A stretch of DNA of 64,000 bases from Bdellovibrionales bacterium (lineage in GTDB: Bacteria; Bdellovibrionota; Bdellovibrionia; Bdellovibrionales; UBA1609): contig CBDHDF010000011.1 in assembly GCA_965261545.1 (NCBI GenBank), forward strand, positions 672,001 through 736,000. Direction: 5' to 3'. Every line of letters begins with the position of its first letter. Positions within the stretch are counted from its first letter, which is position 1. Below, in pieces: positions 22,775 to 63,870 of this stretch. Under the pieces are notes generated by a model. It searched no databases. It was not told the DNA's origin and worked only from the letters and a program-made list of their open reading frames with translations. A program made the position numbers and the translations under genes.

Positions 22775-23313
22775 TTAAAATTGGCCATTTTTATAAGCCG
22801 TCGCCAATGAAAAACGGCCAGTTGATGATGTACTGATTTAGTTATTCTTCGTTCAGAGTTTAGTCAAGTGTCTTTATTTTGTTCATCATTTAACTCGGAC
22901 TATGCTACAAGATTCTGAGGAATGATTTTCTGCCCACCACTTTTGGCATGACCCCAAATGCATCCTTCAGACCTATGGCAGAGTAAATGGAGTATTTTTT
23001 TTCAGGATTCCTTGGAGCAGTTAATGTCTAAAGCTCCGCGAGAGTGACGAGCAAATAGTACGGTAGAAGCCAGTTATCCACAAATTTATCCATGGTGACG
23101 CTGCGTCTGTGACCCCGATGTCTATCAACGCAGCGCTGCCGGTGTGCCCAGCACAATATAGGAGGTAACGACTATAGAAAGCTGACATGATGATGGTGGT
23201 AGGTCCACCGTTCTCGATTTACAGGAATTGGGAACAAACAACCCTAAGCTGCGCAGGGGGCAAGACCTGGGTGGTGAGCGTTAGGGAAAAGGCCAGAATA
23301 ACTGGTCATGTGT

Positions 23314-42116: not shown

Positions 42117-44005
42117 GGGACTGTAAAAATAATTGTGTAACTGCAATTTTTTTCTTAAATCTTAAAGCCACTTATGTGGCTCCACTCCTGGTAAAAAGCA
42201 CAGTCCCATATTATTCGTCAATGTATAATTGACATTTTTTCCTTCAAGCGATTTTGTCAGTCACAATGCATTATAAGTTAATGGGGAGGTGGACATCTTC
42301 GCTGGTCTATATAATTGGCCTCTTTAGTTACTCTGGACTTTTGATTGTATTATGGAGCCGTAATGGGATCATATCAGAACTGGAAAGAACTCAAATAAAT
42401 AATTATCATCTTGGTTGAAAAAAAATCAGCAATGGCTCTCTCAAAAAAATGGAAATTCCAATCTCATCAAAGGGTTCATGTGTTTAGGTTCCCATACTAT
42501 ATTACCCCCTTTTTTTTATTTTTTTTAACTTAGGATATTCGAGAAATACCAGAATTGGGATGAAATATGAAAAAAAATGGGAACCCAAATCTGCACCAAG
42601 AGGGCATGTATTTAGGTTCCCATACTATATTACCCTAACCATAGTCTCGGTATTCCAGTACTTCTGTCAACGCCTTAGAGGGGCTTTTAAGCCCCCTTAT
42701 AAGGCAGGTGGTGGACCTTATTAAAAAACTTAGTTGTCAAAACGGTCACCGTATTCAATGGCAAACCTGTTCATGGCTGGCTTCCAGTTGTGTAATGGTC
42801 GTGTCCATCGCTTAGAGGCCATTTTTATCGCTAAATATACAACTTTTAAAGCCGACCGATCACTGGGAAATATCTTACGATTTCTGATCGCCTTGCGGAT
42901 CACGCTATTTAACGACTCTATGGCGTTTGTGGTATAAAAAATCTTTCTGATTTCATCCGGATAATCGAAAATAGTGATGAGATTGTCCCAATTCCTACGC
43001 CAAGACTTTTCAATATTCGGATACTTTGAAGACCACTTGGTACAAAATTCCTCAAGGGCCTTTTCAGCTTCTGTCAGAGTCGTAGAGCCATAAATGGACT
43101 TGAGGTCTTGGGCGACAGCTTTCATATCCTTGGAAGGAACATAGCGAAGGGAATTGCGGACCATATGGACAATGCACAGTTGTACTTTAGACTTGGGAAA
43201 AGCCGCTGAAATGGCTTGAGGAAAACCTGTAAGACCATCTACAGAAAATATAAATACGTCTTTCAACCCTCGATTTTGCAGCTCAGTCAAAACACTCAAC
43301 CAAAACTTTGAACCCTCATTTTCAGAAATCCATAGGCCCAACAAGTCTTTCTGACCCTCCTCTGTAATACCAAGAGCTAGGTAAATCGCCTTATTAATAA
43401 CTCTCTTGTCTTGATGGACCTTCACCACGATACAGTCCAAAAATACGATAGGGTAAGTGCTATCCAAGGGGCGGTTCTGCCAAGCCGTAACTTCATCAAT
43501 AACAGCATCCGTCACGTTGGCTATCACTGAGTGGGATATCTCTGCACCATGGTAGAGGTCTTTGATAGCTCCTTGAATATCCCTGGTCGTCATTCCCCTC
43601 GCATAGAGGGTCAGAATACTGTCTTCAAAGCCCTCAAGACGAGTCTTGCCTTTGGGAATGACTTGGGGCTCAAAGGAGGCACTTCGGTCACGGGGGACCT
43701 GAAGCTCCACCTCGCCTTTCTCTCCCTTTATGGTCTTTCTACTGTAACCATTGCGAGTGTTGGATTTGCGGGTCTCAGACTTCTCATGCCTCTCATAACC
43801 TAGGTGATCGTCCATTTCCGCATTAAGAGCTGTCTCTAAAACAACCTTCATCAGTTGACCCGTTATGTCGGATAAATCCTTTTGGGTCTTGACGTTCTTC
43901 GCTAGTTCCTTGCCTATTGTCTTGATATCCATTTTGCCTTCTCCTTTCAGGATGATAGTTCATCCTAATATGATTCGGCAGTTACACAAAATAGTTTACA
44001 GGCTC
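42117..44005 (-). mobile_element. IS256-family element with about 610 bp of 3' non-coding cargo
   Basis: IRs GGGACTGTAAAAATAATTGTGTAACTGC / GCAGTTACACAAAATAGTTTACAGGCTC; 8-bp TSD CATGGATC. Confidence 0.94.
42730..43932 (-). CDS. IS256-family transposase
   Basis: NTRNGY, VPRDR..SFEP, WQNRPL, NRGL.D, QLCIVH, YTTNAIESLN. Confidence 0.96.
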   Translation of the reverse strand: MDIKTIGKELAKNVKTQKDLSDITGQLMKVVLETALNAEMDDHLGYERHEKSETRKSNTRNGYSRKTIKGEKGEVELQVPRDRSASFEPQVIPKGKTRLEGFEDSILTLYARGMTTRDIQGAIKDLYHGAEISHSVIANVTDAVIDEVTAWQNRPLDSTYPIVFLDCIVVKVHQDKRVINKAIYLALGITEEGQKDLLGLWISENEGSKFWLSVLTELQNRGLKDVFIFSVDGLTGFPQAISAAFPKSKVQLCIVHMVRNSLRYVPSKDMKAVAQDLKSIYGSTTLTEAEKALEEFCTKWSSKYPNIEKSWRRNWDNLITIFDYPDEIRKIFYTTNAIESLNSVIRKAIRNRKIFPSDRSALKVVYLAIKMASKRWTRPLHNWKPAMNRFAIEYGDRFDN

Positions 44006-46080: not shown

Positions 46081-47697
46081 CAACCTGGGCCATTAAATAA
46101 ATTTACAATGGGGATAAAAGTAGAGCCTCGCTTACAACGCGCAATAAAGAAGTTACTGGCTTGAGCATGGGCCTTAATAATCTCTGTAGATAAATAAAGC
46201 CTATCGTAGAGAGTTATGCTATTACTCTCAAAACTACCTATCATTTGAATAGCATTGGCGATTTCGTTCAGAGCGGGAGAATAGCAAAGATTCTTTGTCA
46301 CACCCGATAAGACGTCATAAGCATGAGATAGATACATACGTAAGAAATGAGTTTCCATCTCATTTGGGCAAGGGTACCCACAATAACCCTCCTTTAAAAG
46401 ATCTTTAGAGCGAGGAAGTGCTAATTGGTCGCCATCTATGGCATAGATATAAAAACCATGAAACGTTTTTCTCAATGGTTCGTAGTCTGTAATCAGAGAT
46501 TCAAAGATATCTTTGAAAAATAGGTAAGAAATACTTTGACGTATCTTGCTGAGACTGCTTTTGACTGGCATGAGAAGCAGGTCACCAAAATGAGTCCATA
46601 CCGTCTTAAGAGCGATTTGGTAGCCTTCGTAATTTGTTCCGGAAATAAGATAGATAATGGTAAAAAAGAAAATTTGAGGATTAAATTTTCGATTCCTTTT
46701 TTGTTTTTCTGGATCGACAAGGTGCTCTGGCTTGAAGGAAGAATCAAGTTTTGGTAGAATAAAATGGTCATCTGTGACGCGAACTCGTCATTTGGGGGCT
46801 TTCGAGATCAATATTGGATTGCATGTGACTTACTCCTTGGTTGAGGGTTGGGTGTAAAATAAAACAAGTCTTATTCTTGTCGATTTATCTAATGATTTCA
46901 AGAGATTTTTCTTAAGGAAACGGCATTGACTCAGAGAATGACGGGCCGGGAAACGGAGTCGAGAAATAGCGAGGACAAGAAATAACGGGGCTGAGAAACT
47001 TCAGAGGGACTGTAAAAATAATTGTGTAACTGCAATTTTTTTCTTAAATCTTAAAGCCACTTATGTGGCTCCACTCCTGGTAAAAAGCACAGTCCCATAT
47101 TATTCGTCAATGTATAATTGACATTTTTTCCTTCAAGCGATTTTGTCAGTCACAATGCATTATAAGTTAATGGGGAGGTGGACATCTTCGCTGGTCTATA
47201 TAATTGGCCTCTTTAGTTACTCTGGACTTTTGATTGTATTATGGAGCCGTAATGGGATCATATCAGAACTGGAAAGAACTCAAATAAATAATTATCATCT
47301 TGGTTGAAAAAAAATCAGCAATGGCTCTCTCAAAAAAATGGAAATTCCAATCTCATCAAAGGGTTCATGTGTTTAGGTTCCCATACTATATTACCCCCTT
47401 TTTTTTATTTTTTTTAACTTAGGATATTCGAGAAATACCAGAATTGGGATGAAATATGAAAAAAAATGGGAACCCAAATCTGCACCAAGAGGGCATGTAT
47501 TTAGGTTCCCATACTATATTACCCTAACCATAGTCTCGGTATTCCAGTACTTCTGTCAACGCCTTAGAGGGGCTTTTAAGCCCCCTTATAAGGCAGGTGG
47601 TGGACCTTATTAAAAAACTTAGTTGTCAAAACGGTCACCGTATTCAATGGCAAACCTGTTCATGGCTGGCTTCCAGTTGTGTAATGGTCGTGTCCAT

Positions 47698-53299: not shown

Positions 53300-53713
53300 G
53301 TGACGCGAACTTGTCATTTCGTTCGCTCCTTTGTAAATTTAAAATTTTGAAGTCTCCAATGCTCCTTTAAAAATAAAGTCACACACTTTACTTGCTAAAA
53401 CAACATTTTTCTTAGGATAAATTCAACCTTCTTAAACGGTAAATCGAAAAAGATGGTCACCCAAAGTCTCGTTCAAACATACATGCCATATGCAAAAAAA
53501 ATAGTCTTGAGCCTCCGAGTTCCCCAAGAGAACTTCAAGCATTTAAATGTGACTAAAGTACAGAAATCGCTTAGGAACTTGGTTGCCCTCACACAATTTA
53601 GATGTAGACAGCCGATCAAGATGCTTAGCACTCTTTTCCCAGTCCTCAATTATCGTGGCCAGCCGCTCCGCGTCTGTCACTCTAATTGCCGCTTCGCTAG
53701 ACGAATGGCATTG
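53300..53713 (+). pseudogene. IS4-family relic with right IR
   Basis: TGACGCGAACTTGTCATTT resembles the IS4 type A leader; NFKH..CRQ C-terminal-like peptide; ends AGACGAATGGCATTG (also seen at about 31059-31073). Confidence 0.55.
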
Positions 53714-53855
53714 ATCTAAAGGGGATTTACGTCCTGAAACATACCTAGATCGGCGGCACTTCCATAGGTGGGAGTGTGGCATTTTTGAGCAGAAACTAGA
53801 CAATAGCCTATTCATAAAATATATAAATTTCCGATATATAAATTTGTGTCGTAAC

Positions 53856-53961
53856 ACTCATGGGGGCGCCTTGCTTCCCCAGCCACGCCCATGAATGTTG
53901 TGTATTAAAATAGGATTTATTAATAAATTCAGGATTTTAGACGAAAAACATTCATAGTAAC
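53856..53961 (+). repeat. Hairpin cassette A (putative non-autonomous IS110-associated unit)
   Basis: Hairpin aacactcatggg...cccatgaatgtt; ends TTCATAGTAAC, identical to the IS110 right end. Confidence 0.7.
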
Positions 53962-54037
53962 ATTCATGGGGGCGCCTTGCTTCCCCACCCACGCCCATGA
54001 ATCTTATCTAGGCCCCCACTTCTTTGCACGAAGCAAC
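53962..54037 (+). repeat. Hairpin cassette L
   Basis: Hairpin attcatggg...cccatgaat; ends CGAAGCAAC; second copy at about 30459-30534 on the minus strand. Confidence 0.75.
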
Positions 54038-54155
54038 TCGGTGGACAGCTTCGCTGGTCTATATAATTGGCCTCTTTTAGTTACTCTGGACTTTTGATGG
54101 TATTTTTGTCATGTATGATTCCGATACAATAAAGGATAAAGCAATAACATTATTG

Positions 54156-54342
54156 GAAGGTGATAAGATGAGTGGCCGTTGAATAGATTGGTAATTTTAA
54201 TTCCGTGAAGTAACATGGTCTTGAGCTTTGGATCGAACCCACGCATGTACCTGCACTCTGAGTGTATGGACGTATAGTAAGTTGACCTATTTTCGCTTTA
54301 GAATTTATGGCAAAATCCCAAGGCTCTAGTTTTATCACCTTC
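54156..54342 (+). ncRNA. Putative IS110 bridge/guide RNA, copy 1
   Basis: Closed by an 11-bp inverted repeat GAAGGTGATAA / TTATCACCTTC followed by a T-run; internal stems; segments GAAGTAAC and ATAGTAA match the junctions. Confidence 0.6.
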
Positions 54343-54370
54343 TTTTTTTCTAACAGAAAGGAGGAGTCAT

Positions 54371-55571
54371 GTGGATATTATTTATAGTTCTGTTTGTGGA
54401 ATAGATGTTCATCAACATATGTTGATGTGTACGATTGTCAAAGTGGAAGACGGTAAGAAGAAGTTTTTCACAAAAGAGTTCAAGAATTTTCCAAAAAATT
54501 TTCCTAGAATGCGCTCTTGGATGAAGCCACATAAGGTTGAGAGAGTTCTTTTTGAGAGCACAGGGATTTATTGGAATTCTTTATACGATGATTTGACAGA
54601 AAAAGGTTATGAAGTAGATGTTATCAATGCCTTTCATGTCAAAAATATTACTGGTAAAAAAACTGACGTGTTGGATAGCCAGTGGATTGCAGAGCTTGGT
54701 GCTTGTGGTCTTCTAAGAGCTAGCTTCATTCCTCCACGTGAGATTCGTTCTATTAGACTTTTGGCTCGTTATCGTACAAAAACGATCCGCCAAATATCTT
54801 CGGAACAAAATCGTATGTATAAGGTTCTTGAATATTCAGGCATTCGTTTAACCTATGCAATGTCTAAAGCTGACTGCGTATCTGGTATGGCCATGATTCG
54901 TGCCATAGCTAATGGAGAGAGATCAGTTTCTAAATTGATGTCTCTTGCCAGAGGGTCTTTACGTCAAAAGACCGAAGAATTTTCTTACGCCCTGTCGGGA
55001 AAGATGACGGAAGAAAATCGTTTTGTTCTTCAACGCATTCTTGATCGAATAGATTTTTTGAAAAAAGAATGCTCTCAAATTGAAGAAGAACTTTTCATTC
55101 GTATGAAACCCTATGAAAGGCAGTGGCATCTACTCCAGACTATACCTGGAATTGACGAATTAAGTGCAGCGCTTTTGATTGCAGAAATAGGAGGCAATGT
55201 GAAGTCTTTTAAAAATAAAGGAAATTTTTGCTCCTGGATGGGGATTTGCCCATCCAATAATGAGAGCGCAGGAAAAAAAGTCTTCACGAACGAGGAAAGC
55301 GAACACATATGTGAAATCGTTGGTATGTGAGATGGCCAATAGTGCTATTAAGACGAATTCACAATTCAAAGGCAAATACCAATCACTTGTTATAAGGCGT
55401 GGGCACAAGAGATCAGTGATTGCCGTTGGTCACAAAATGATGGGAGTTGTTTATTCAGTCATAAGTAATGACACCCCCTACAAAGACCCTGGAATTGACT
55501 ATGAAAAGCTCATGGTGAAAAAAAATGCACCAAGGTGGATTAGAGCGTTAAAAAAGTATGATTTCATGTAA
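54371..55571 (+). pseudogene. IS110 recombinase, frameshifted (A7 instead of A9 at about 55273)
   Basis: Otherwise matches 55998-57200. Confidence 0.9.
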
Positions 55572-55782
55572 TGTAGGATGATTTAAAAACTCGGACATTT
55601 GAAAAAATTCGAAGAACGGATAGTGGATTCGTGCGTCCAAACTACCCCGGAGATTCATAGTAACTCGGTGGACAGCTTCGCTGGTCTATATAATTGGCCT
55701 CTTTTAGTTACTCTGGACTTTTGATGGTATTTTTGTCATGTATGATTCCGATACAATAAAGGATAAAGCAATAACATTATTG

Positions 55783-55969
55783 GAAGGTGATAAGATGAGT
55801 GGCCGTTGAATAGATTGGTAATTTTAATTCCGTGAAGTAACATGGTCTTGAGCTTTGGATCGAACCCACGCATGTACCTGCACTCTGAGTGTATGGACGT
55901 ATAGTAAGTTGACCTATTTTCGCTTTAGAATTTATGGCAAAATCCCAAGGCTCTAGTTTTATCACCTTC
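55783..55969 (+). ncRNA. Putative IS110 bridge/guide RNA, copy 2
   Basis: Same sequence as 54156-54342. Confidence 0.6.
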
Positions 55970-55997
55970 TTTTTTTCTAACAGAAAGGAGGAGTCAT

Positions 55998-57200
55998 GTG
56001 GATATTATTTATAGTTCTGTTTGTGGAATAGATGTTCATCAACATATGTTGATGTGTACGATTGTCAAAGTGGAAGACGGTAAGAAGAAGTTTTTCACAA
56101 AAGAGTTCAAGAATTTTCCAAAAAATTTTCCTAGAATGCGCTCTTGGATGAAGCCACATAAGGTTGAGAGAGTTCTTTTTGAGAGCACAGGGATTTATTG
56201 GAATTCTTTATACGATGATTTGACAGAAAAAGGTTATGAAGTAGATGTTATCAATGCCTTTCATGTCAAAAATATTACTGGTAAAAAAACTGACGTGTTG
56301 GATAGCCAGTGGATTGCAGAGCTTGGTGCTTGTGGTCTTCTAAGAGCTAGCTTCATTCCTCCACGTGAGATTCGTTCTATTAGACTTTTGGCTCGTTATC
56401 GTACAAAAACGATCCGCCAAATATCTTCGGAACAAAATCGTATGTATAAGGTTCTTGAATATTCAGGCATTCGTTTAACCTATGCAATGTCTAAAGCTGA
56501 CTGCGTATCTGGTATGGCCATGATTCGTGCCATAGCTAATGGAGAGAGATCAGTTTCTAAATTGATGTCTCTTGCCAGAGGGTCTTTACGTCAAAAGACC
56601 GAAGAATTTTCTTACGCCCTGTCGGGAAAGATGACGGAAGAAAATCGTTTTGTTCTTCAACGCATTCTTGATCGAATAGATTTTTTGAAAAAAGAATGCT
56701 CTCAAATTGAAGAAGAACTTTTCATTCGTATGAAACCCTATGAAAGGCAGTGGCATCTACTCCAGACTATACCTGGAATTGACGAATTAAGTGCAGCGCT
56801 TTTGATTGCAGAAATAGGAGGCAATGTGAAGTCTTTTAAAAATAAAGGAAATTTTTGCTCCTGGATGGGGATTTGCCCATCCAATAATGAGAGCGCAGGA
56901 AAAAAAAAGTCTTCACGAACGAGGAAAGCGAACACATATGTGAAATCGTTGGTATGTGAGATGGCCAATAGTGCTATTAAGACGAATTCACAATTCAAAG
57001 GCAAATACCAATCACTTGTTATAAGGCGTGGGCACAAGAGATCAGTGATTGCCGTTGGTCACAAAATGATGGGAGTTGTTTATTCAGTCATAAGTAATGA
57101 CACCCCCTACAAAGACCCTGGAATTGACTATGAAAAGCTCATGGTGAAAAAAAATGCACCAAGGTGGATTAGAGCGTTAAAAAAGTATGATTTCATGTAA
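55998..57200 (+). CDS. IS110-family DEDD (RuvC-like) recombinase/transposase
   Basis: GIDVH, FESTGIYW, KTDVLDS (DEDD); LQTIPGID, GICPSNNESAG (catalytic Ser loop); GGAGG RBS. Confidence 0.96.
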   Translation: MDIIYSSVCGIDVHQHMLMCTIVKVEDGKKKFFTKEFKNFPKNFPRMRSWMKPHKVERVLFESTGIYWNSLYDDLTEKGYEVDVINAFHVKNITGKKTDVLDSQWIAELGACGLLRASFIPPREIRSIRLLARYRTKTIRQISSEQNRMYKVLEYSGIRLTYAMSKADCVSGMAMIRAIANGERSVSKLMSLARGSLRQKTEEFSYALSGKMTEENRFVLQRILDRIDFLKKECSQIEEELFIRMKPYERQWHLLQTIPGIDELSAALLIAEIGGNVKSFKNKGNFCSWMGICPSNNESAGKKKSSRTRKANTYVKSLVCEMANSAIKTNSQFKGKYQSLVIRRGHKRSVIAVGHKMMGVVYSVISNDTPYKDPGIDYEKLMVKKNAPRWIRALKKYDFM

Positions 57201-57405
57201 TGTAGGATGATTTAAAAACTCGGACATTTGAAAAAATTCGAAGAACGGATAGTGGATTCGTGCGTCCAAACTACCCCGGAGATTCATAGTAACTACTCAA
57301 TCTTTCCACTTTGTGTGAGGAAGAATAGAGGGTTGCGAATCCAAAGCCTCCCCTATGAAGCTAATGGGGGGTGAACATTTACAAAAAAATTTAGACATAT
57401 ATTGA

Positions 57406-60204
57406 TTGGTTATAAATTTGGAATCTAATGAGATAATTAATAATTTTAAAAAAGATTTCGAATATTTAATGGGGTTTTCTCCATTTGAGTGGCAAAGAGA
57501 TCTTTTTTTTCAGTATTTTATTGGTCAAAACAATAACAATATTCCAAATATTCCTTCATTTATTGATATTCCAACCGGTCTGGGTAAGACTTCAGTGATG
57601 ACGATTTGGTATTTGGCTTTGAAATATGGATATATTGTACCTCGGCGCTTGATTTATGTCGTCGATAGGAGATCTGTAGTGGACCAAGCTACGTCAATTG
57701 CCAATGAGATTAGAATTAAAGCTCAAGATGAATTAGAAGAGCATAAACTTCTTGTAAGCACATTGCGTGGTCAGTATATAGATAATCGAGATTGGCTGGC
57801 TAACCCTGCGAATCCCTCCATTATTGTTGGTACTGTTGATATGATTGGCTCAAGAATTCTATTTTCAGGCTATGGTGTGTCTAATAAAATGAGATCCTAT
57901 CATGCCGGACTTATGGGAGTAGACTCACTCGTTGTTCTTGATGAAGCGCATTTGGTTCCTCCCTTCGAAAAAATGCTTCAAACAATTGTAAATAATAATA
58001 TGTTTGAACCTTCTAAGAAAGAGATTTGCAACTTTATGCCACCATTTAAATTGCTATCACTATCAGCCACAGGGTATGAGAGCAATGAAAATAAAGAAGG
58101 AGTATTTCAGTTAACCTCGAAGCACTGCAAAGATGAGTTGGTCAATAAGCGTCTAAACGCATGTAAAAGTCTTATTATCGAAAAAACTAATGATAAGGAA
58201 GATGTTGTAAGTGCGATAACTAAATATGCTTGGGATCTTAGTCAGGAAATGTGTGATTCTCGATCCACTTGTCGCATACTTATTTATTGTAATCTCCGAA
58301 AGAATGCCATAACAATTAAAGATAAGATTCACAAAAAAATTAATAACGAAAAAAAAATTCATTTTGTGTCTGAGCTTTTGGTTGGTAGTCGTCGAGTGCT
58401 TGAACGGCAAGAATTATCTTCTTGGTTGAGTCGTCATGGTTTCTTAAAAGATAACCAAGAATCAATGAAGAAGATAGATATTCAAAGAAATGAAGTTGAG
58501 CACCAGCCACAAGTTGCTTTTTTAATTGCGACATCAGCAGGTGAAGTAGGTATTGATCTTGATGCAGATCACATGATCTGCGATTTAGTTGAGTGGGAGC
58601 GTATGGTGCAGCGTTTTGGTCGAGTTAATCGCCGAGGTGAGAGTAAATCCTGTATTAAAGTCATTGTTAACTCAAAAAATGGCGATCTAAGATTATTAAA
58701 TCCATTGAGATTCTTTACGAAGAAATCTCAAATTTATGAAACAAAGAATGAAGAATGGAATCACCAAGAGTTATCCATATCTTTCAACGAGAAGGGAGTA
58801 AGCCCCAGAAACATATTGAAACTTAAAGAGTATGCAAAAAAAGATGAAAATATTCAGAATATGATTAAAGATGCTACGACAAAGTCACCGTTATGCCCAT
58901 ATTTGACTCGATCACTTGTCGATGCTTGGTCGATGACTTCACTACATGAACATACGGGTCGTCCCAATGATATTCAGCCATGGTTGCGTGGATGGGAAGA
59001 AAAATCAAATGCGCAAACTACGATCATCTGGCGTAAATATTTACCGATATGCAGAGGCGAACAAGAAGCGACTAAGAAAGATATTGAATCCTTCTTTGAA
59101 GCAGCGCCACCACATATCAGTGAGAAAATTGAAACCAAGACAATTGAGGTTGTTAATTGGTTTATAGATCAATTTAATAATAATAAATGTGAGTATGGCA
59201 CAAATAATAAAAATATTATTGGGTATATTTTTTATTCTTCCATGAAATTATATGAAAAAATATATACAAATGATATCAGAAAAGAATATAAAAAAGATTT
59301 AATAAAAAAACTCTCAGGAAATATATTAATTTTAAATAGTTCTTATGGAGGTCTTTCTGAGAATGGTATGCTTGATGCAACGCCTAATATACCTCTACAG
59401 CGTGTCATTGATGGTGATGATGAGTGGATGCCTAATTATGATGGCCCACCGACTATTCGATTTCGTATTCAATCTAGTATAGGGGCAAAGAAGATAGGTC
59501 TATTCAAAAAGACCTTATCTGATAATAGTAAATGGATAGAAGGCCATCGCTTTAATGTTGAGATAAATCAAGATGCTGAAGTCACACACTGGCTTGCTAT
59601 TGAAAAATGGTGTAGTGATTCGCAGACTGAAGAGGATCGGTCTACAGGATTTCCTCAATTATTAGAAGAACATCATGTTTGGACTGAAAAAAAAGCAAGA
59701 GTCTTGGCGAAGGCTCTTCATTTACCAGAAATTTATACCAAAATGCTTATGATTGCTGCCAAACTTCACGATGAAGGTAAGCGTTACAGGTATTGGCAGA
59801 GAGCATTCAATGCTCCATCTGATGGTGAGATTTATGCTAAAACAAAGGGACCTATAAGTTTAAAGCGATTGAATGGTTATCGTCATGAATTTGGTTCATT
59901 GCCATATGCAGAAGAAAATGAGGAGTTAAAGAGCTTGCCAACTGAACTTCAAGACCTTGCTCTACACTTAATTGCTGCACATCATGGTTGGGGGCGACCT
60001 AATATATCCACTTCAGGCAATGATAGTCCTCCTTCTGTTCTTGAGGATCGTGCATTAAATGTAGCGTTGCGATTTGCACGGTTACAGAAGCATTGGGGAC
60101 CTTGGGGTCTTGCTTGGTGGGAGTCCTTGTTGCGATCAGCAGATCAGCAGGCATCTCGTGAAAATGATGAGCGCAGCGTTGATTCTATAGGGGAGGTCTC
60201 GTGA
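57406..60204 (+). CDS. cas3: Type I-G (I-U) Cas3 helicase with C-terminal HD nuclease
   Basis: IPTGLGKT, PRRLIYVVDRR, DEAH, LSAT, EVGIDLD, QRFGRVNR; C-terminal HDEGK, YRHEFGS, AAHHG, ESLLRSAD. Confidence 0.95.
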   Translation: MVINLESNEIINNFKKDFEYLMGFSPFEWQRDLFFQYFIGQNNNNIPNIPSFIDIPTGLGKTSVMTIWYLALKYGYIVPRRLIYVVDRRSVVDQATSIANEIRIKAQDELEEHKLLVSTLRGQYIDNRDWLANPANPSIIVGTVDMIGSRILFSGYGVSNKMRSYHAGLMGVDSLVVLDEAHLVPPFEKMLQTIVNNNMFEPSKKEICNFMPPFKLLSLSATGYESNENKEGVFQLTSKHCKDELVNKRLNACKSLIIEKTNDKEDVVSAITKYAWDLSQEMCDSRSTCRILIYCNLRKNAITIKDKIHKKINNEKKIHFVSELLVGSRRVLERQELSSWLSRHGFLKDNQESMKKIDIQRNEVEHQPQVAFLIATSAGEVGIDLDADHMICDLVEWERMVQRFGRVNRRGESKSCIKVIVNSKNGDLRLLNPLRFFTKKSQIYETKNEEWNHQELSISFNEKGVSPRNILKLKEYAKKDENIQNMIKDATTKSPLCPYLTRSLVDAWSMTSLHEHTGRPNDIQPWLRGWEEKSNAQTTIIWRKYLPICRGEQEATKKDIESFFEAAPPHISEKIETKTIEVVNWFIDQFNNNKCEYGTNNKNIIGYIFYSSMKLYEKIYTNDIRKEYKKDLIKKLSGNILILNSSYGGLSENGMLDATPNIPLQRVIDGDDEWMPNYDGPPTIRFRIQSSIGAKKIGLFKKTLSDNSKWIEGHRFNVEINQDAEVTHWLAIEKWCSDSQTEEDRSTGFPQLLEEHHVWTEKKARVLAKALHLPEIYTKMLMIAAKLHDEGKRYRYWQRAFNAPSDGEIYAKTKGPISLKRLNGYRHEFGSLPYAEENEELKSLPTELQDLALHLIAAHHGWGRPNISTSGNDSPPSVLEDRALNVALRFARLQKHWGPWGLAWWESLLRSADQQASRENDERSVDSIGEVS

Positions 60205-61085
60205 ATCAGTTTTCAATTTCTGTCAATCTCTTTAACCCAGGGCAGGTTTTTGCTTGCCTTGGATTTCTAGAAGCTGCAGAGGTGCTAGTGGGCCATGTTC
60301 AAGGAGGTTTCATTTGGAATCAAGGAACCAAAGCAAAATTCTATTTAAATGTAGAGAGTGATAACAATCCTTTTAAAATCATACTGGAATTCTTAGTGAG
60401 GGCCAAGCTAAAGAGATGGGCCCCGATTGGCTATTCATATAAATCATCTAATAAAGCATCTGAATCAAAAGAAGATAAGAAAAATGACCTAGAGTTGCGC
60501 AAATTTTCTCCATTTTATTTTGATCATAAAGTTAAATCAAAGGAAATGATCTTGCCTATTTACTTCATTGGTGAGGACAATACATGTATTGATCTTAGTC
60601 ATTGGGCTGATGAATCTAGTCGTTACAATTTTAAGCTCTATGCAGGAAATCGCTCTGCATATAAAATTGCCAGAGATATGATTGAGAGCATTAAAGATCT
60701 TTGGAAAGAAAATCAGACTAATCTAATCAAGGACCCTTTTATGACTACTCATATGGGAGGAAATTTCAATTTTGATTCCCGAGGAAATTGGACTTCCATA
60801 AATGTGGGGTATTCACTAAACGATCAAAAACATCAAATTGTTTCTTCTCCAGTCGTTGAGCTTCTTGGAGCTTTGGGTTTGGAAAATGCTCGACCTAGTA
60901 AAGATGAGTGTGAAGATAGGAAAATTCATTATGCGGTTTGGAAGATTCCTCTTTTTCCAATACTAGCGCGTGCTGCACTTTGTGGAACTATTCCAAATAT
61001 TCCTATGCAAAAATTTTATTTTAAGTTAGAAAAATCTGGAAAGAATAAGATTGTTACTTTTGCACAAAAGGAGGATTCACTATGA
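60201..61085 (+). CDS. csb3: Type I-G large-subunit-type protein Csb3/Cas8g
   Basis: VNLFNPGQVFACLGFLEAA, FKLYAGNRS, FNFDSRG.W...VGYS, PVVELLGALGLE; overlaps the cas3 stop. Confidence 0.8.
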   Translation: MNQFSISVNLFNPGQVFACLGFLEAAEVLVGHVQGGFIWNQGTKAKFYLNVESDNNPFKIILEFLVRAKLKRWAPIGYSYKSSNKASESKEDKKNDLELRKFSPFYFDHKVKSKEMILPIYFIGEDNTCIDLSHWADESSRYNFKLYAGNRSAYKIARDMIESIKDLWKENQTNLIKDPFMTTHMGGNFNFDSRGNWTSINVGYSLNDQKHQIVSSPVVELLGALGLENARPSKDECEDRKIHYAVWKIPLFPILARAALCGTIPNIPMQKFYFKLEKSGKNKIVTFAQKEDSL

Positions 61086-62320
61086 ATGATTTGAAGGAAG
61101 AAGAGGTAAATGTAAAAAAAACTGAAGAAATGATTGAAAATTGGATTGATGATGAGAGTGATATTGTTGCATTACATTTGAAACAAGAACTATTACCTGT
61201 TGGAGGAAAAAAAGGTGAGAAGAATGTTATTTTCCCTCCTACTTATGCTGATATTGGTTATAATATTGATACACTGAGGGATGGGACAAAGGTTGCTCTT
61301 GTTGACAGTGTTGGTTCTCAGGCCAATCGCATGGAGCGAATTTTCAAAAAAAAATCCTACTCAAAACTTGTTCCTCAAATTGAAATAAATTTAGTAAATG
61401 ATGAAAAAAGAGAAGAAAAAGAAAAAAATGTTAATGAAAATAATAGTATTCGTAAAATATCTCTACTAGATTTAGCACATAGGGGTGCGGATGCTACTGT
61501 TTATTCATGTCCAGGTCTTGCGCAAGAAATGACAAAGGCTTTTCATGAATTGAAAATAAATGGTAATGCGTGGAAATTATTTAAATTATCTCCAACATCT
61601 TTGGTTTTTGGATTTTGGGATTCCCGTGGTGGTTCAGGTGAAAAATCTCCTCGTTTAGTTCGGTCGATTATTCGTGCATGGGATGTTGAATCCATCCATA
61701 GTGCAGCGCAATTTAATTCAATATGGAAATATCTCAGTGAAAATAATAAGAATGAACTTAAGAAATCAGGAAATAATGACAAGAGGTCTGCTGTAGGTCT
61801 TGCTGATGTTCCTTCGGTATTCCGGGAAAATAAACTTTCTAAAACACTTGATGATAGAATTTTTAATCTTGAGACAAGAGTTCTTGGAGGTATCCTAGTC
61901 AATGGAATCATTGAAAGAAATATCACTGTCAACTTGGTAGCTCTACGCAATATTTGTGGTGGCAATTCAGATAAAACTAAATCTATTCAATCTTATCTCT
62001 TAGCACTCTCCTTAATTGCAGCAACATATGAAATTGATTTATTCCTTCGTGAGGGTTGCCACCTTCGTTATACTCATGATGATTGTTGGGAGCAAATTCC
62101 TCGGAGAGGCGAAGGTAAGAAAGTTCAATTATTATTAAAGGATATATCTGAGTATGCTCAGAAGAAGGCTAGATCTTTCTATGAAAAAGGTGTAAATTGG
62201 ATTGGCCCTAAGCAGCTGATTTACAACTTTGATTTGGCTGAGGCCAAAAAACTGTCTAAGAAAGAAGTACAAAAGGACAAGAGTAAGGAAAATAAGAAAG
62301 ATACGAAGGGTGAGACTTAG
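61082..62320 (+). CDS. csb1: Type I-G Cas7 (Csb1)
   Basis: IFPPTYA, VDSVGSQANRME, HRGADA, PTSLVFGFWDS, LFLREGCHL. Confidence 0.92.
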   Translation: MNDLKEEEVNVKKTEEMIENWIDDESDIVALHLKQELLPVGGKKGEKNVIFPPTYADIGYNIDTLRDGTKVALVDSVGSQANRMERIFKKKSYSKLVPQIEINLVNDEKREEKEKNVNENNSIRKISLLDLAHRGADATVYSCPGLAQEMTKAFHELKINGNAWKLFKLSPTSLVFGFWDSRGGSGEKSPRLVRSIIRAWDVESIHSAAQFNSIWKYLSENNKNELKKSGNNDKRSAVGLADVPSVFRENKLSKTLDDRIFNLETRVLGGILVNGIIERNITVNLVALRNICGGNSDKTKSIQSYLLALSLIAATYEIDLFLREGCHLRYTHDDCWEQIPRRGEGKKVQLLLKDISEYAQKKARSFYEKGVNWIGPKQLIYNFDLAEAKKLSKKEVQKDKSKENKKDTKGET

Positions 62321-62322
62321 AT

Positions 62323-63870
62323 ATGAAGTATTCACTTCTGTTTTCAATATATTTCCATGAAGGTCGCTATCACGGTGAATGCGATGGAAGAAGCGAGTGG
62401 CCACCATCACCATTTCGTTTTTTTCAAGCTTTGGTGGCGGCTACGGCAAGAGGTGTTAAGATTTCATCCCAGTATAGGTATGCACTTGAGTGGCTTCAGG
62501 ATCTTGATCCACCTACCGTTCTTGCTCAAGTTGCTTGTGAGGGTCAGAGTGTCAAAAATTATGTTCCGAACAACGATCTTGATAAATATGGAGGTGATTT
62601 GAGAAAAATTAATAAAATTCGAACTCCAAAGAGTATTCATCCACATATTTTTGATGAAAAAATTCCATTGATATTTATTTGGACATTTCATGATACGAGA
62701 GAAAATAAAGATAAAGCAAAAATTATTTGTCATGTTGCGAAAAAAATATATCAACTTGGTCGAGGTGTGGATATGGCTTGGGCTCAATCAAAGGTATTGG
62801 ACTCAAACACAATGAAAACATATATTGAAGGGTATAGAGGTACTGTATATCAACCTAGTCAAGAGGGTTTTCTGGGCACTGGAACACCGTTATTTTGCCC
62901 AACCAAAGGTTCTCTTGAAAGCCTCGAAGAACGATACAATTCTAATCGTATTACAACATGTATGGATAAGAATAGCAAGGTTGATTATATTTTTTCTCAA
63001 CAACCAAAACCTTATTTCACCAAGGTTATATATAAAGCACCATCTCACAATTTTTTGTTTGAGTTGCGTACAGTGACTTCTGATGAATCTTTTGTGAAAT
63101 GGCAGTCAATTAAAACTTTTGATCTTGTAAAGAAAATCCGGAGTATAGCAGCGAGTCGCTTGAAAAAAAGTTTACCCAAAGAAACTGAAATTATTGATCG
63201 TGTGCTTATAGGTTGTGGTGCTACCGAAGAAGATAAAGAATGTCGAGTGCGTATCTTACCCCTTCCTTCTATTGGCCATTTTCATGCGGATATATTTATT
63301 CGACGTGTGCTGATTGAGGTGCCTTCTAGGTGTCTGTTGAAGGCAGATGATTTAGCTTGGGCATTCTCTGGCATTCAAGATATTGATTGTAAAACTGGGG
63401 AAATTTTTTGGAATCTTGTGTGCACAAACGATCGAAGGATTCTCAAGCACTATGGCGTTGAGAATAGTAAAAAAGATAATTTTCATATTTGGCGCACTAT
63501 AACTCCAGTGGTACTTCCATCTATGAGGGTGAAACGTTTAGGAGGGTCTCATGAAATAGTTGGGGCTAGGGAGGGGATGTCTAAGACCAGTAGAAGGAAC
63601 AATCGCATAGAAGGTGAAGTAGAGTTGGCTTGTACTGTGAAGCAAGCACTTCGTCATGCAGGAGTATTTACACCTGTAAAGTCTATTCTTATTCAAAGGG
63701 AGCCGTTTGATTTGAATAATGTAAAATCTAAAGACTTTATTGTTCCTAAAAGATTCAAAATGAATGAATTACGTCATTTGGAGATTAATTTTAATCATGC
63801 ATTATCGGGACCTCTTGTTCTTGGTGATGGGCGTTATTTTGGTTTAGGTTTGATGGCTCCTAAAACTTAA
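62323..63870 (+). CDS. csb2: Type I-G Cas5/Cas6 fusion (Csb2)
   Basis: GRYHG..EWPPSPFRFFQALVA, YVPNND, LGRGVD, LPSIGH, WRTITPVVL, GPLVLGDGRYFGLGLM (Cas6 G-loop). Confidence 0.93.
   Translation: MKYSLLFSIYFHEGRYHGECDGRSEWPPSPFRFFQALVAATARGVKISSQYRYALEWLQDLDPPTVLAQVACEGQSVKNYVPNNDLDKYGGDLRKINKIRTPKSIHPHIFDEKIPLIFIWTFHDTRENKDKAKIICHVAKKIYQLGRGVDMAWAQSKVLDSNTMKTYIEGYRGTVYQPSQEGFLGTGTPLFCPTKGSLESLEERYNSNRITTCMDKNSKVDYIFSQQPKPYFTKVIYKAPSHNFLFELRTVTSDESFVKWQSIKTFDLVKKIRSIAASRLKKSLPKETEIIDRVLIGCGATEEDKECRVRILPLPSIGHFHADIFIRRVLIEVPSRCLLKADDLAWAFSGIQDIDCKTGEIFWNLVCTNDRRILKHYGVENSKKDNFHIWRTITPVVLPSMRVKRLGGSHEIVGAREGMSKTSRRNNRIEGEVELACTVKQALRHAGVFTPVKSILIQREPFDLNNVKSKDFIVPKRFKMNELRHLEINFNHALSGPLVLGDGRYFGLGLMAPKT

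Follow-up and report, generated by a model that had tools for sequence, protein, structure and literature searches.

A head-to-tail chain of a gene-less miniature and two IS110 copies in a Bdellovibrionales bacterium, and its apparent target at IS66 ends

How do several units that share the junctions of IS110-type insertion sequences (IS) come to follow each other directly, head to tail, in one bacterial genome? We addressed this question for a chain in a Bdellovibrionales bacterium, located within a window of 64,000 nt (assembly GCA_965261545.1, contig CBDHDF010000011.1, positions 672,001-736,000 of the forward strand; the source genome is labeled G000, and C2, C3, C6, C10 and C11 are its contigs), in which junctions of the form G(T/C)AAC are read at positions 53851, 53957, 54033, 55660 and 57289. 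The preliminary description of this DNA recognized four units, namely, two hairpin cassettes, A and L, and two IS110 elements; the junction letters and the head-to-tail order stand, but the four-way parsing does not, since L is the left end of the IS110 element. The chain consists of three units, the gene-less miniature A and two IS110 copies, and it exists, yet its plan is mostly of a known sort. The explanation that we favor, with a probability of about 0.62, is that a bridge recombinase and the miniature A recombine at an AA core, and that targeting of the ends of a resident IS66 element, followed by re-targeting, builds the stack. The unit limits, the core, the target, the restored target, the guide matches and the ends of A are those parts of the explanation that are read from the sequence.

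IS66 ends as the target and their restoration

The junctions are of the IS110 type, at a short core without duplication, as originally proposed. The right flank is an IS66 end for 15 of the 35 right ends in the genome, the left end of another copy for 8, and some other site for 12. The dinucleotide that precedes the core is identical in 20 of 22 distinct left flanks, as against a background of 2.8%, and 33 of the 36 genomic copies of the 11-letter target consensus are IS66 ends. By this count, the preferred target is the terminal repeat of the resident IS66 (1715 bp) and not a repetitive extragenic palindromic (REP) hairpin; the hairpin previously taken for a REP-like target is the element's own left-end box. 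The site in the window is a look-alike that agrees with the right arm in 6 of 7 letters and with the target overall in 10 of 11.

The two letters with which the IS110 right end finishes are the ones that precede the core at targets, and the right junction consequently reads once more as a complete IS66 end and a complete consensus target. Five composites have the 8-bp IS66 duplication on the outer side of IS110, which accordingly stands between the duplication and an intact IS66 end; 21 other left-type ends have no duplication partner within 14 kb. The earlier suggestion that the right end regenerates a target thus holds up in a specific form: with an IS66 end as the right flank, the 11-letter consensus is restored exactly, and, as far as can be read from these junctions, insertion at IS66 ends restores the site. 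No sign of IS110-IS66 composites moving as units was seen among copies that are too alike for discrimination. None of the titles and abstracts listed in the literature searched concerns an IS110 element aimed at IS66 ends.

Some of the ends in this genome are unusual in other respects. Three IS66-type ends (C2:856129, C6:298118 and C2:284802) start with the letters of the IS110 left end and possibly derive from IS110 deletion between similar G-runs. Two hairpins of 51 bp also stand alone (C2:618569-618619 and C6:99928-99978), each with an 8-bp duplication and terminal inverted repeats. Collapse of inverted IS110-IS66-IS110 composites across a direct repeat of 9 bp would yield exactly the one on C2, an identity that held in both composites tested, and such hairpins are probably scars, similar to those left by nearly precise excision of composite transposons.

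A bridge RNA is predicted in the left end of the element (Table 1). Its two 7/7 guide matches are unique in the left end (chance of 0.03 and 0.04, respectively, from shuffles), and an alignment of 12 left ends puts both guides in two conserved loops. In 12 of 20 distinct relatives, the match of the donor guide to the right end of the same element is perfect, compared to a shuffled mean of 2.3 and maximum of 7 (31 loci examined, 27 with anchors), and the left junction scores 121 against the second strand of the target loop in relatives, compared to 95.4 upon shuffling. The top-strand target match is placed 5' of the bottom-strand match, an order read in this element alone. The single-sequence fold has a z of -2.5 and poorly reproduces the two loops; a promoter scan of positions 53700-54400 found none, and Rfam gave no match inside the unit. 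One IS110 is inserted in the donor-guide-coding stretch of another copy (C10:1020987 / C10:1009960), a natural donor half-match.

Table 1. Features of the chain (positions in the window)
Feature	Position	Strand	Details
Left junction	53851-53854	+	Two target-derived letters and the AA core
Unit A	53855-53960	+	106 bp; left-end hairpin, AT-rich interior, right-end tail, core
Left sub-terminal repeat copy of A	53889-53899	+	Partner at 53947-53957, 10/11 letters
IS110 copy 1	53961-55663	+	Complete; 1705 bp when the run has 9 A
L, first 76 bp of the IS110 left end	53961-54036	+	Donor right arm, hairpin, left sub-terminal repeat at 53995-54004
Internal AA site at the border of L and body	54029-54043	+	Partial match to the left target guide
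65-nt left-end piece	54040-54104	+	Also present (95%) in the long non-coding arm of an IS256-family element with multiple copies
Predicted bridge RNA	54170-54290	+	
Predicted right target guide	54180-54186	+	Complements the IS66 end in 7/7 letters
Predicted left target guide	~54207-54214	+	
Predicted right donor guide	~54245-54248	+	Short
Predicted left donor guide	54274-54280	+	Agrees with the right end in 7/7 letters
Recombinase gene, copy 1	54371-55571	+	Putative frameshift in the assembly at the 7-A run, 55273-55279
Join between the right end of copy 1 and the copy-2 internal site	55660-55664	+	
IS110 copy 2	55664-57292	+	First 76 bp missing; bridge-RNA region and right end kept
Recombinase gene, copy 2	55998-57200	+	Intact, 400 amino acids; PF01548 and PF02371; NF033542, 245.5 bits (cut-off 140)
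Right sub-terminal repeat of copy 2	57280-57289	+	
Right target arm	57293-57299	+	Guide match 6/7; non-IS66 end here

The three units of the chain

The status of L is apparent from its surroundings in the genome, where the L end precedes 38 of the 40 starts of the IS110 body, whereas the two starts that lack it (at 55662 in the chain and at 233.5 kb on C2) adjoin a right end instead. There are 25 full-length copies that run from L to the right end, and their left flanks vary; when an IS110 is nested inside another IS110, L travels with the element, and such insertions show both junctions along with the empty site, only the core being common. In addition, of 33 relatives, hand-picked from the matches of alignment scans, 14 have the hairpin motif upstream of the gene, as against none of 33 control stretches. 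On these comparisons, L is the left end of IS110 rather than a cassette in its own right. The lengths given for A (106 bp) and L (76 bp) agree with the sequence, the two indeed share a hairpin (54 nt, 91% identity), and there is no target duplication around the chain, the end at 53851 having no 8-bp partner. The reported lack of inverted repeats has to be abandoned, given that A and IS110 each contain a matched sub-terminal inverted repeat (in IS110, 10 bp with 9/10 letters paired; in A, 10/11 letters). In relatives, this repeat covaries, with 51 of 78 variable positions matching compared to 30.1 upon shuffling (13 distinct end pairs; 31 loci examined, 20 with both ends; the kin among them are not independent). 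The left end of the element is long and the right end short (410 bp and 92 bp), as in IS621-like elements. The 65-nt piece that the left end has in common with an IS256-family element also occurs at 42288-42351 and 47177-47240 of the window.

Copies 1 and 2 of the chain differ solely in the length of an A-run, and the term autonomous does not apply to them as it stands: copy 1 reads a 7-A frameshift in the assembly and copy 2 is without its left end. This run in the recombinase gene (window 55273-55279 and 56900-56908) varies between 7, 8 and 9 A; 18 copies in the assembly have 7, 14 have 9 and 3 have 8. The short-read contigs show only the 9-A, in-frame form; however, variants are merged in such contigs, and the two peaks of the distribution may be genuine. 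The recombinase genes of three relatives (P0005, P0006 and P0015) likewise leave the frame at the A-run, which would be either a slippage site or a long-read error.

Unit A is present in six copies at five sites of the genome, two of the copies with decayed junctions. The copies are only 87-96% identical, which suggests that A is older than the near-identical IS110 copies. Its interior matches neither IS110 nor IS66, and the right end, which had been described as exactly that of IS110, has only the final 12 letters in common with it; the repeat pairs of A and IS110 differ by compensating changes. The copies on C6 and C3 are placed on an IS66-type miniature and the one on C10 on a decayed IS66 end. 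A displays the features of an IS110-type miniature (similar to MITEPpu9), namely, both IS ends without a gene, and several sites with the same junctions and target; its ends are direct, not inverted, and there is no 8-bp duplication, as would be expected of an IS66-type miniature. These features support A as a non-autonomous unit with IS110 ends and targets, so the mini-cassettes of the preliminary description survive in this form, but the other part of that claim, mobilization in trans by the recombinase, we infer.

Proposed growth of the stack and alternative explanations

Under the explanation favored here, the recombinase would recognize the end of IS66 or of its miniatures mainly via the arm to the right of the core along with the two letters to its left; insertion would spare the IS66 end, and the new right junction would again offer a target of equal quality at which later copies would dock, with rightward growth of the stack as the outcome. 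In this chain, A would have come first, at the look-alike site, followed by IS110 at the right junction of A. Copy 2 would have lost its first 76 bp via the internal half-matching AA site, either through insertion at that site and subsequent collapse of the doubled 76-bp left end or through a deletion from the junction to the internal site, with the same product; if the former route was taken, the 55662 junction does not derive from right-end regeneration. The internal site matches the left guide in 4 of 6 positions, and both mismatches are wobble-compatible. One-arm matches suffice for IS621 insertion (bioRxiv 10.64898/2026.08.31.748434; for the IS110 mechanism, see PMC13626964). At three places, IS110 has A or a remnant of it on its left, and none of the 35 right ends is followed by A, a polarity compatible with reuse of the right junction of an older unit; furthermore, tandem neighbors often are different variants. 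Such an arrangement suggests stacking by re-targeting, although we infer RNA guidance, the mobilization of A, the sequence of events and re-insertion as what caused the stacking.

Several observations weigh against this account. The internal site ranks among the better, but not first, of the element's 192 AA sites, and beyond the two letters, the left flanks depart from the predicted left guide. The right-target guide shows no covariation with the right flanks in 20 relatives (83 compared to 81.7 upon shuffling, with several zones mis-anchored and kin not independent), and the dominance of the right arm accordingly rests on the element of the source genome. Among the short-read contigs listed, no circle joint was found, joins of right end and left end occurring only as chromosomal tandems; no empty version of the chain site was seen in 383 other genomes, which gave only short weak matches. 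Finally, homologous recombination of circles yields the same tandem structure.

This last point is central to an alternative that accepts the same elements and the same target and derives the tandems from homologous recombination, via an excised circle that integrates into a resident copy or via unequal exchange, or regards them as by-products of copy-out excision. We consider it unlikely, albeit deserving of serious attention: 25 near-identical 1.7-kb copies supply ample homology, CazIS110-1 gave tandem repeats as by-products in 3 of 96 colonies (bioRxiv 10.1101/2025.10.25.684509), and a crossover of an A circle within the common 49-bp hairpin could give the join of A to IS110. However, an IS110 circle crossing over in the hairpin of A predicts IS110 before A, an order seen at none of the 35 right ends, and a 12-letter remnant of A before IS110 on C10 suits a site-specific join; the variant differences between neighbors exclude simple local duplication, though not circle integration. 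Much less probable is a long-read assembly error as the source of the left-truncated second IS110. It is true that the chain copies differ only in a homopolymer run and that no contig bridging the right-end-to-body junction at 55662 is visible among the matches listed, but an equivalent join arises independently with the right end of A on C2, the join at 55662 falls exactly on the AA core, and the IS depth of 107.7, compared to a single-copy depth of ~4, is consistent with ~27 copies. The short-read contigs also span the junction of the flank with A with 0 differences; they probably come from the source sample and hence are not independent.

The hairpin units themselves could be IS66-type miniatures moved by the IS66 transposase, one of which was captured by IS110 as its left end. 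The two solo 51-bp hairpins, with their perfect terminal inverted repeats and 8-bp duplications, lend this possibility some appeal, as do the resemblance of the left junction to an IS66 end and the hairpin-type letters borne by some IS66-type ends. Still, we hold it to be highly improbable given that the solo hairpin is, letter for letter, the collapse product of composites, that the hairpin motif appears ancestral in the IS110 relatives (14/33 as against 0/33) and that the ends of A are direct and without duplication. Hardly any credence attaches to the original notion of L as an independent cassette, with IS110 targeting hairpin cassettes in the manner of REP elements. Bodies without L do occur twice, and a diverged L-like piece on C10 (92% over 76 nt) has no body after it; yet 38 of 40 bodies, with varied flanks, have L before them, and L lacks a right-end tail and a partner for its sub-terminal repeat, and is not represented among the 53 hairpin matches by any identical solo copy bounded by both cores. 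Both REP targeting and IS66 mobilization of the hairpin were weighed and are unneeded for the explanation.

Family placement, relatives and known systems

The recombinase is homologous to IS621 (E 2.7e-15), and alignment to the latter shows conservation of D12, E62, D99, D102 and S299, which we take to be the catalytic residues. A DEDD RuvC-like domain combined with a Tnp domain, insertion at a short core that leaves no target duplication, and a non-coding end with predicted donor and target guides all are features of the IS110 family, to which, judged by these traits, the element belongs. It does not fit either subgroup cleanly: the IS110 group (IS621-like) has no repeat or one of 2-3 bp and a target guide in which the bottom-strand match comes first, neither of which is found here, and the element departs from the IS1111 group, with its downstream guide RNA and its repeats near both ends, in having the RNA region upstream of the gene and the left repeat copy ~35 nt inside. 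An integron cassette array comprises a tyrosine integrase, attC sites and gene-bearing cassettes, whereas the recombinase here is of the IS110 type and the cassette units are gene-less; the designation integron-like was therefore too strong, all the more so because stacked IS110 modules and miniatures are already published.

A DNA search of 384 genomes of the order gave only short weak matches outside the source genome. The recombinase was matched in 9 of 41 genomes, including the source genome, the others showing at most 41% identity; a single-protein locus scan gave no match. Relatives at 65-80% identity exist as well; the left-end comparisons cover those with at most 48%. A deltaproteobacterial relative (G384, 37% identity) has 55 matches to its own ~100-bp miniature; seven loci, chosen from 25, all have at least two adjacent units with differing interiors and no recombinase nearby, and miniatures stand directly to the left of IS110 at three places. 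Short repeats upstream were found at 4 of 86 related loci, compared to 2 of 65 controls, and true left-end miniatures only at L057 and L077 among these 86, which means that such a chain is not a general property of the clade. At both loci, which belong to G384 (L057:2044-2300 and L077:2150-2300), the right end of the genome's own miniature agrees with the predicted left target guide, and it is possible that this guide was retargeted onto miniatures. At L071, it is the genomic site that matches this guide; the matches at all three loci were read by eye.

A distant IS110-like open reading frame lies in a 2.4-kb insert that splits a CRISPR array (10 repeats) on C11 (C11:752146-755219), the first repeat-spacer of which is duplicated. 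Over 17 nt, the CRISPR repeat is similar to the right end of IS110, a likeness reached in 50 of 5000 shuffles in a test chosen post hoc and possibly due to chance. In the window, a type I-G cas operon (cas3g, cas8g2, GSU0053, GSU0054; 57406-63870) begins ~110 bp to the right of the stack, and this proximity may affect the promoter of the operon. Rfam also matches group II intron domain D1-D4-2 at 23195-23310 of the window.

Terminal repeats of another mobile element as the target of an IS110-family element are not without precedent. IS4321 and IS5075, of the IS1111 group, reportedly target the terminal repeats of Tn21, and IS4321 is said to interrupt the Tn21 repeat. The element described here resembles them in being aimed at the terminal inverted repeat of a different mobile element and in its sub-terminal inverted repeats; it differs from them in that the target is IS66, the RNA region is upstream of the gene and the end of the host element is rebuilt.

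The closest parallel in plan is ISPpu9/MITEPpu9 (the ssr9 module) of Pseudomonas putida KT2440 (PMC12288879), an IS110-family system with a dinucleotide core, a short right box and a ~43-bp left box that contains an internal inverted repeat. It likewise has a gene-less module with slightly diverged ends that stands head to tail with the IS, solo or in tandem, and an end-truncated hybrid unit, and its modular circles have been demonstrated. The differences are that here the miniature lies to the left of the IS, the core is AA, an IS66 end takes the place of REP as the target, and A is not known to contain a small RNA. With IS621/ISEc21, the bridge (seek) RNA systems (PMC11208160, PMC11187229), the element shares the long left end, the two-loop guide RNA (predicted in our case) and the dinucleotide core without duplication. 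Unlike the 2-3 bp of the IS110 group, its sub-terminal repeat is 9-10 bp, with the left copy ~35 nt inside, and the guide order is the one reported for IS1111, not that of ISEc21 (PMC11187229), as judged from a single element. A survey of the family lists 437 tandem complete IS110 modules and 468 tandem non-coding units beside a transposase, and reports one-sided donor matches at unit borders (bioRxiv 10.64898/2026.08.14.744561). According to the same survey, in whose main text IS66 is absent, IS110 insertion fails to regenerate the target; in the case described here, by contrast with this general statement, the effective target is restored letter for letter.

Thus, the chain of a miniature and an IS is already known, and what is new here is the IS66-end target with its restored site, along with the end geometry. 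A bolder and rather doubtful scenario would be that a clade with an upstream RNA but IS1111-like geometry of ends and guides evolved a self-renewing target, which would allow polar, repeatable stacking of varied gene-less cassettes and harmless docking at IS66 ends, the IS66 transposase carrying the whole stack via the left junction that mimics an IS66 end. Regardless of that scenario, the miniature A implies that ~100 bp of ends may perhaps be enough, and one element docks on the end of another without destroying that end. For bridge editing, the overlap of donor and target arms predicts repeated insertion, which would be either a hazard or a means of iterative cargo loading. For the family itself, this is a natural case of an IS110 insertion that apparently restores its own effective target, and it provides a testable reason for IS110 stacking.

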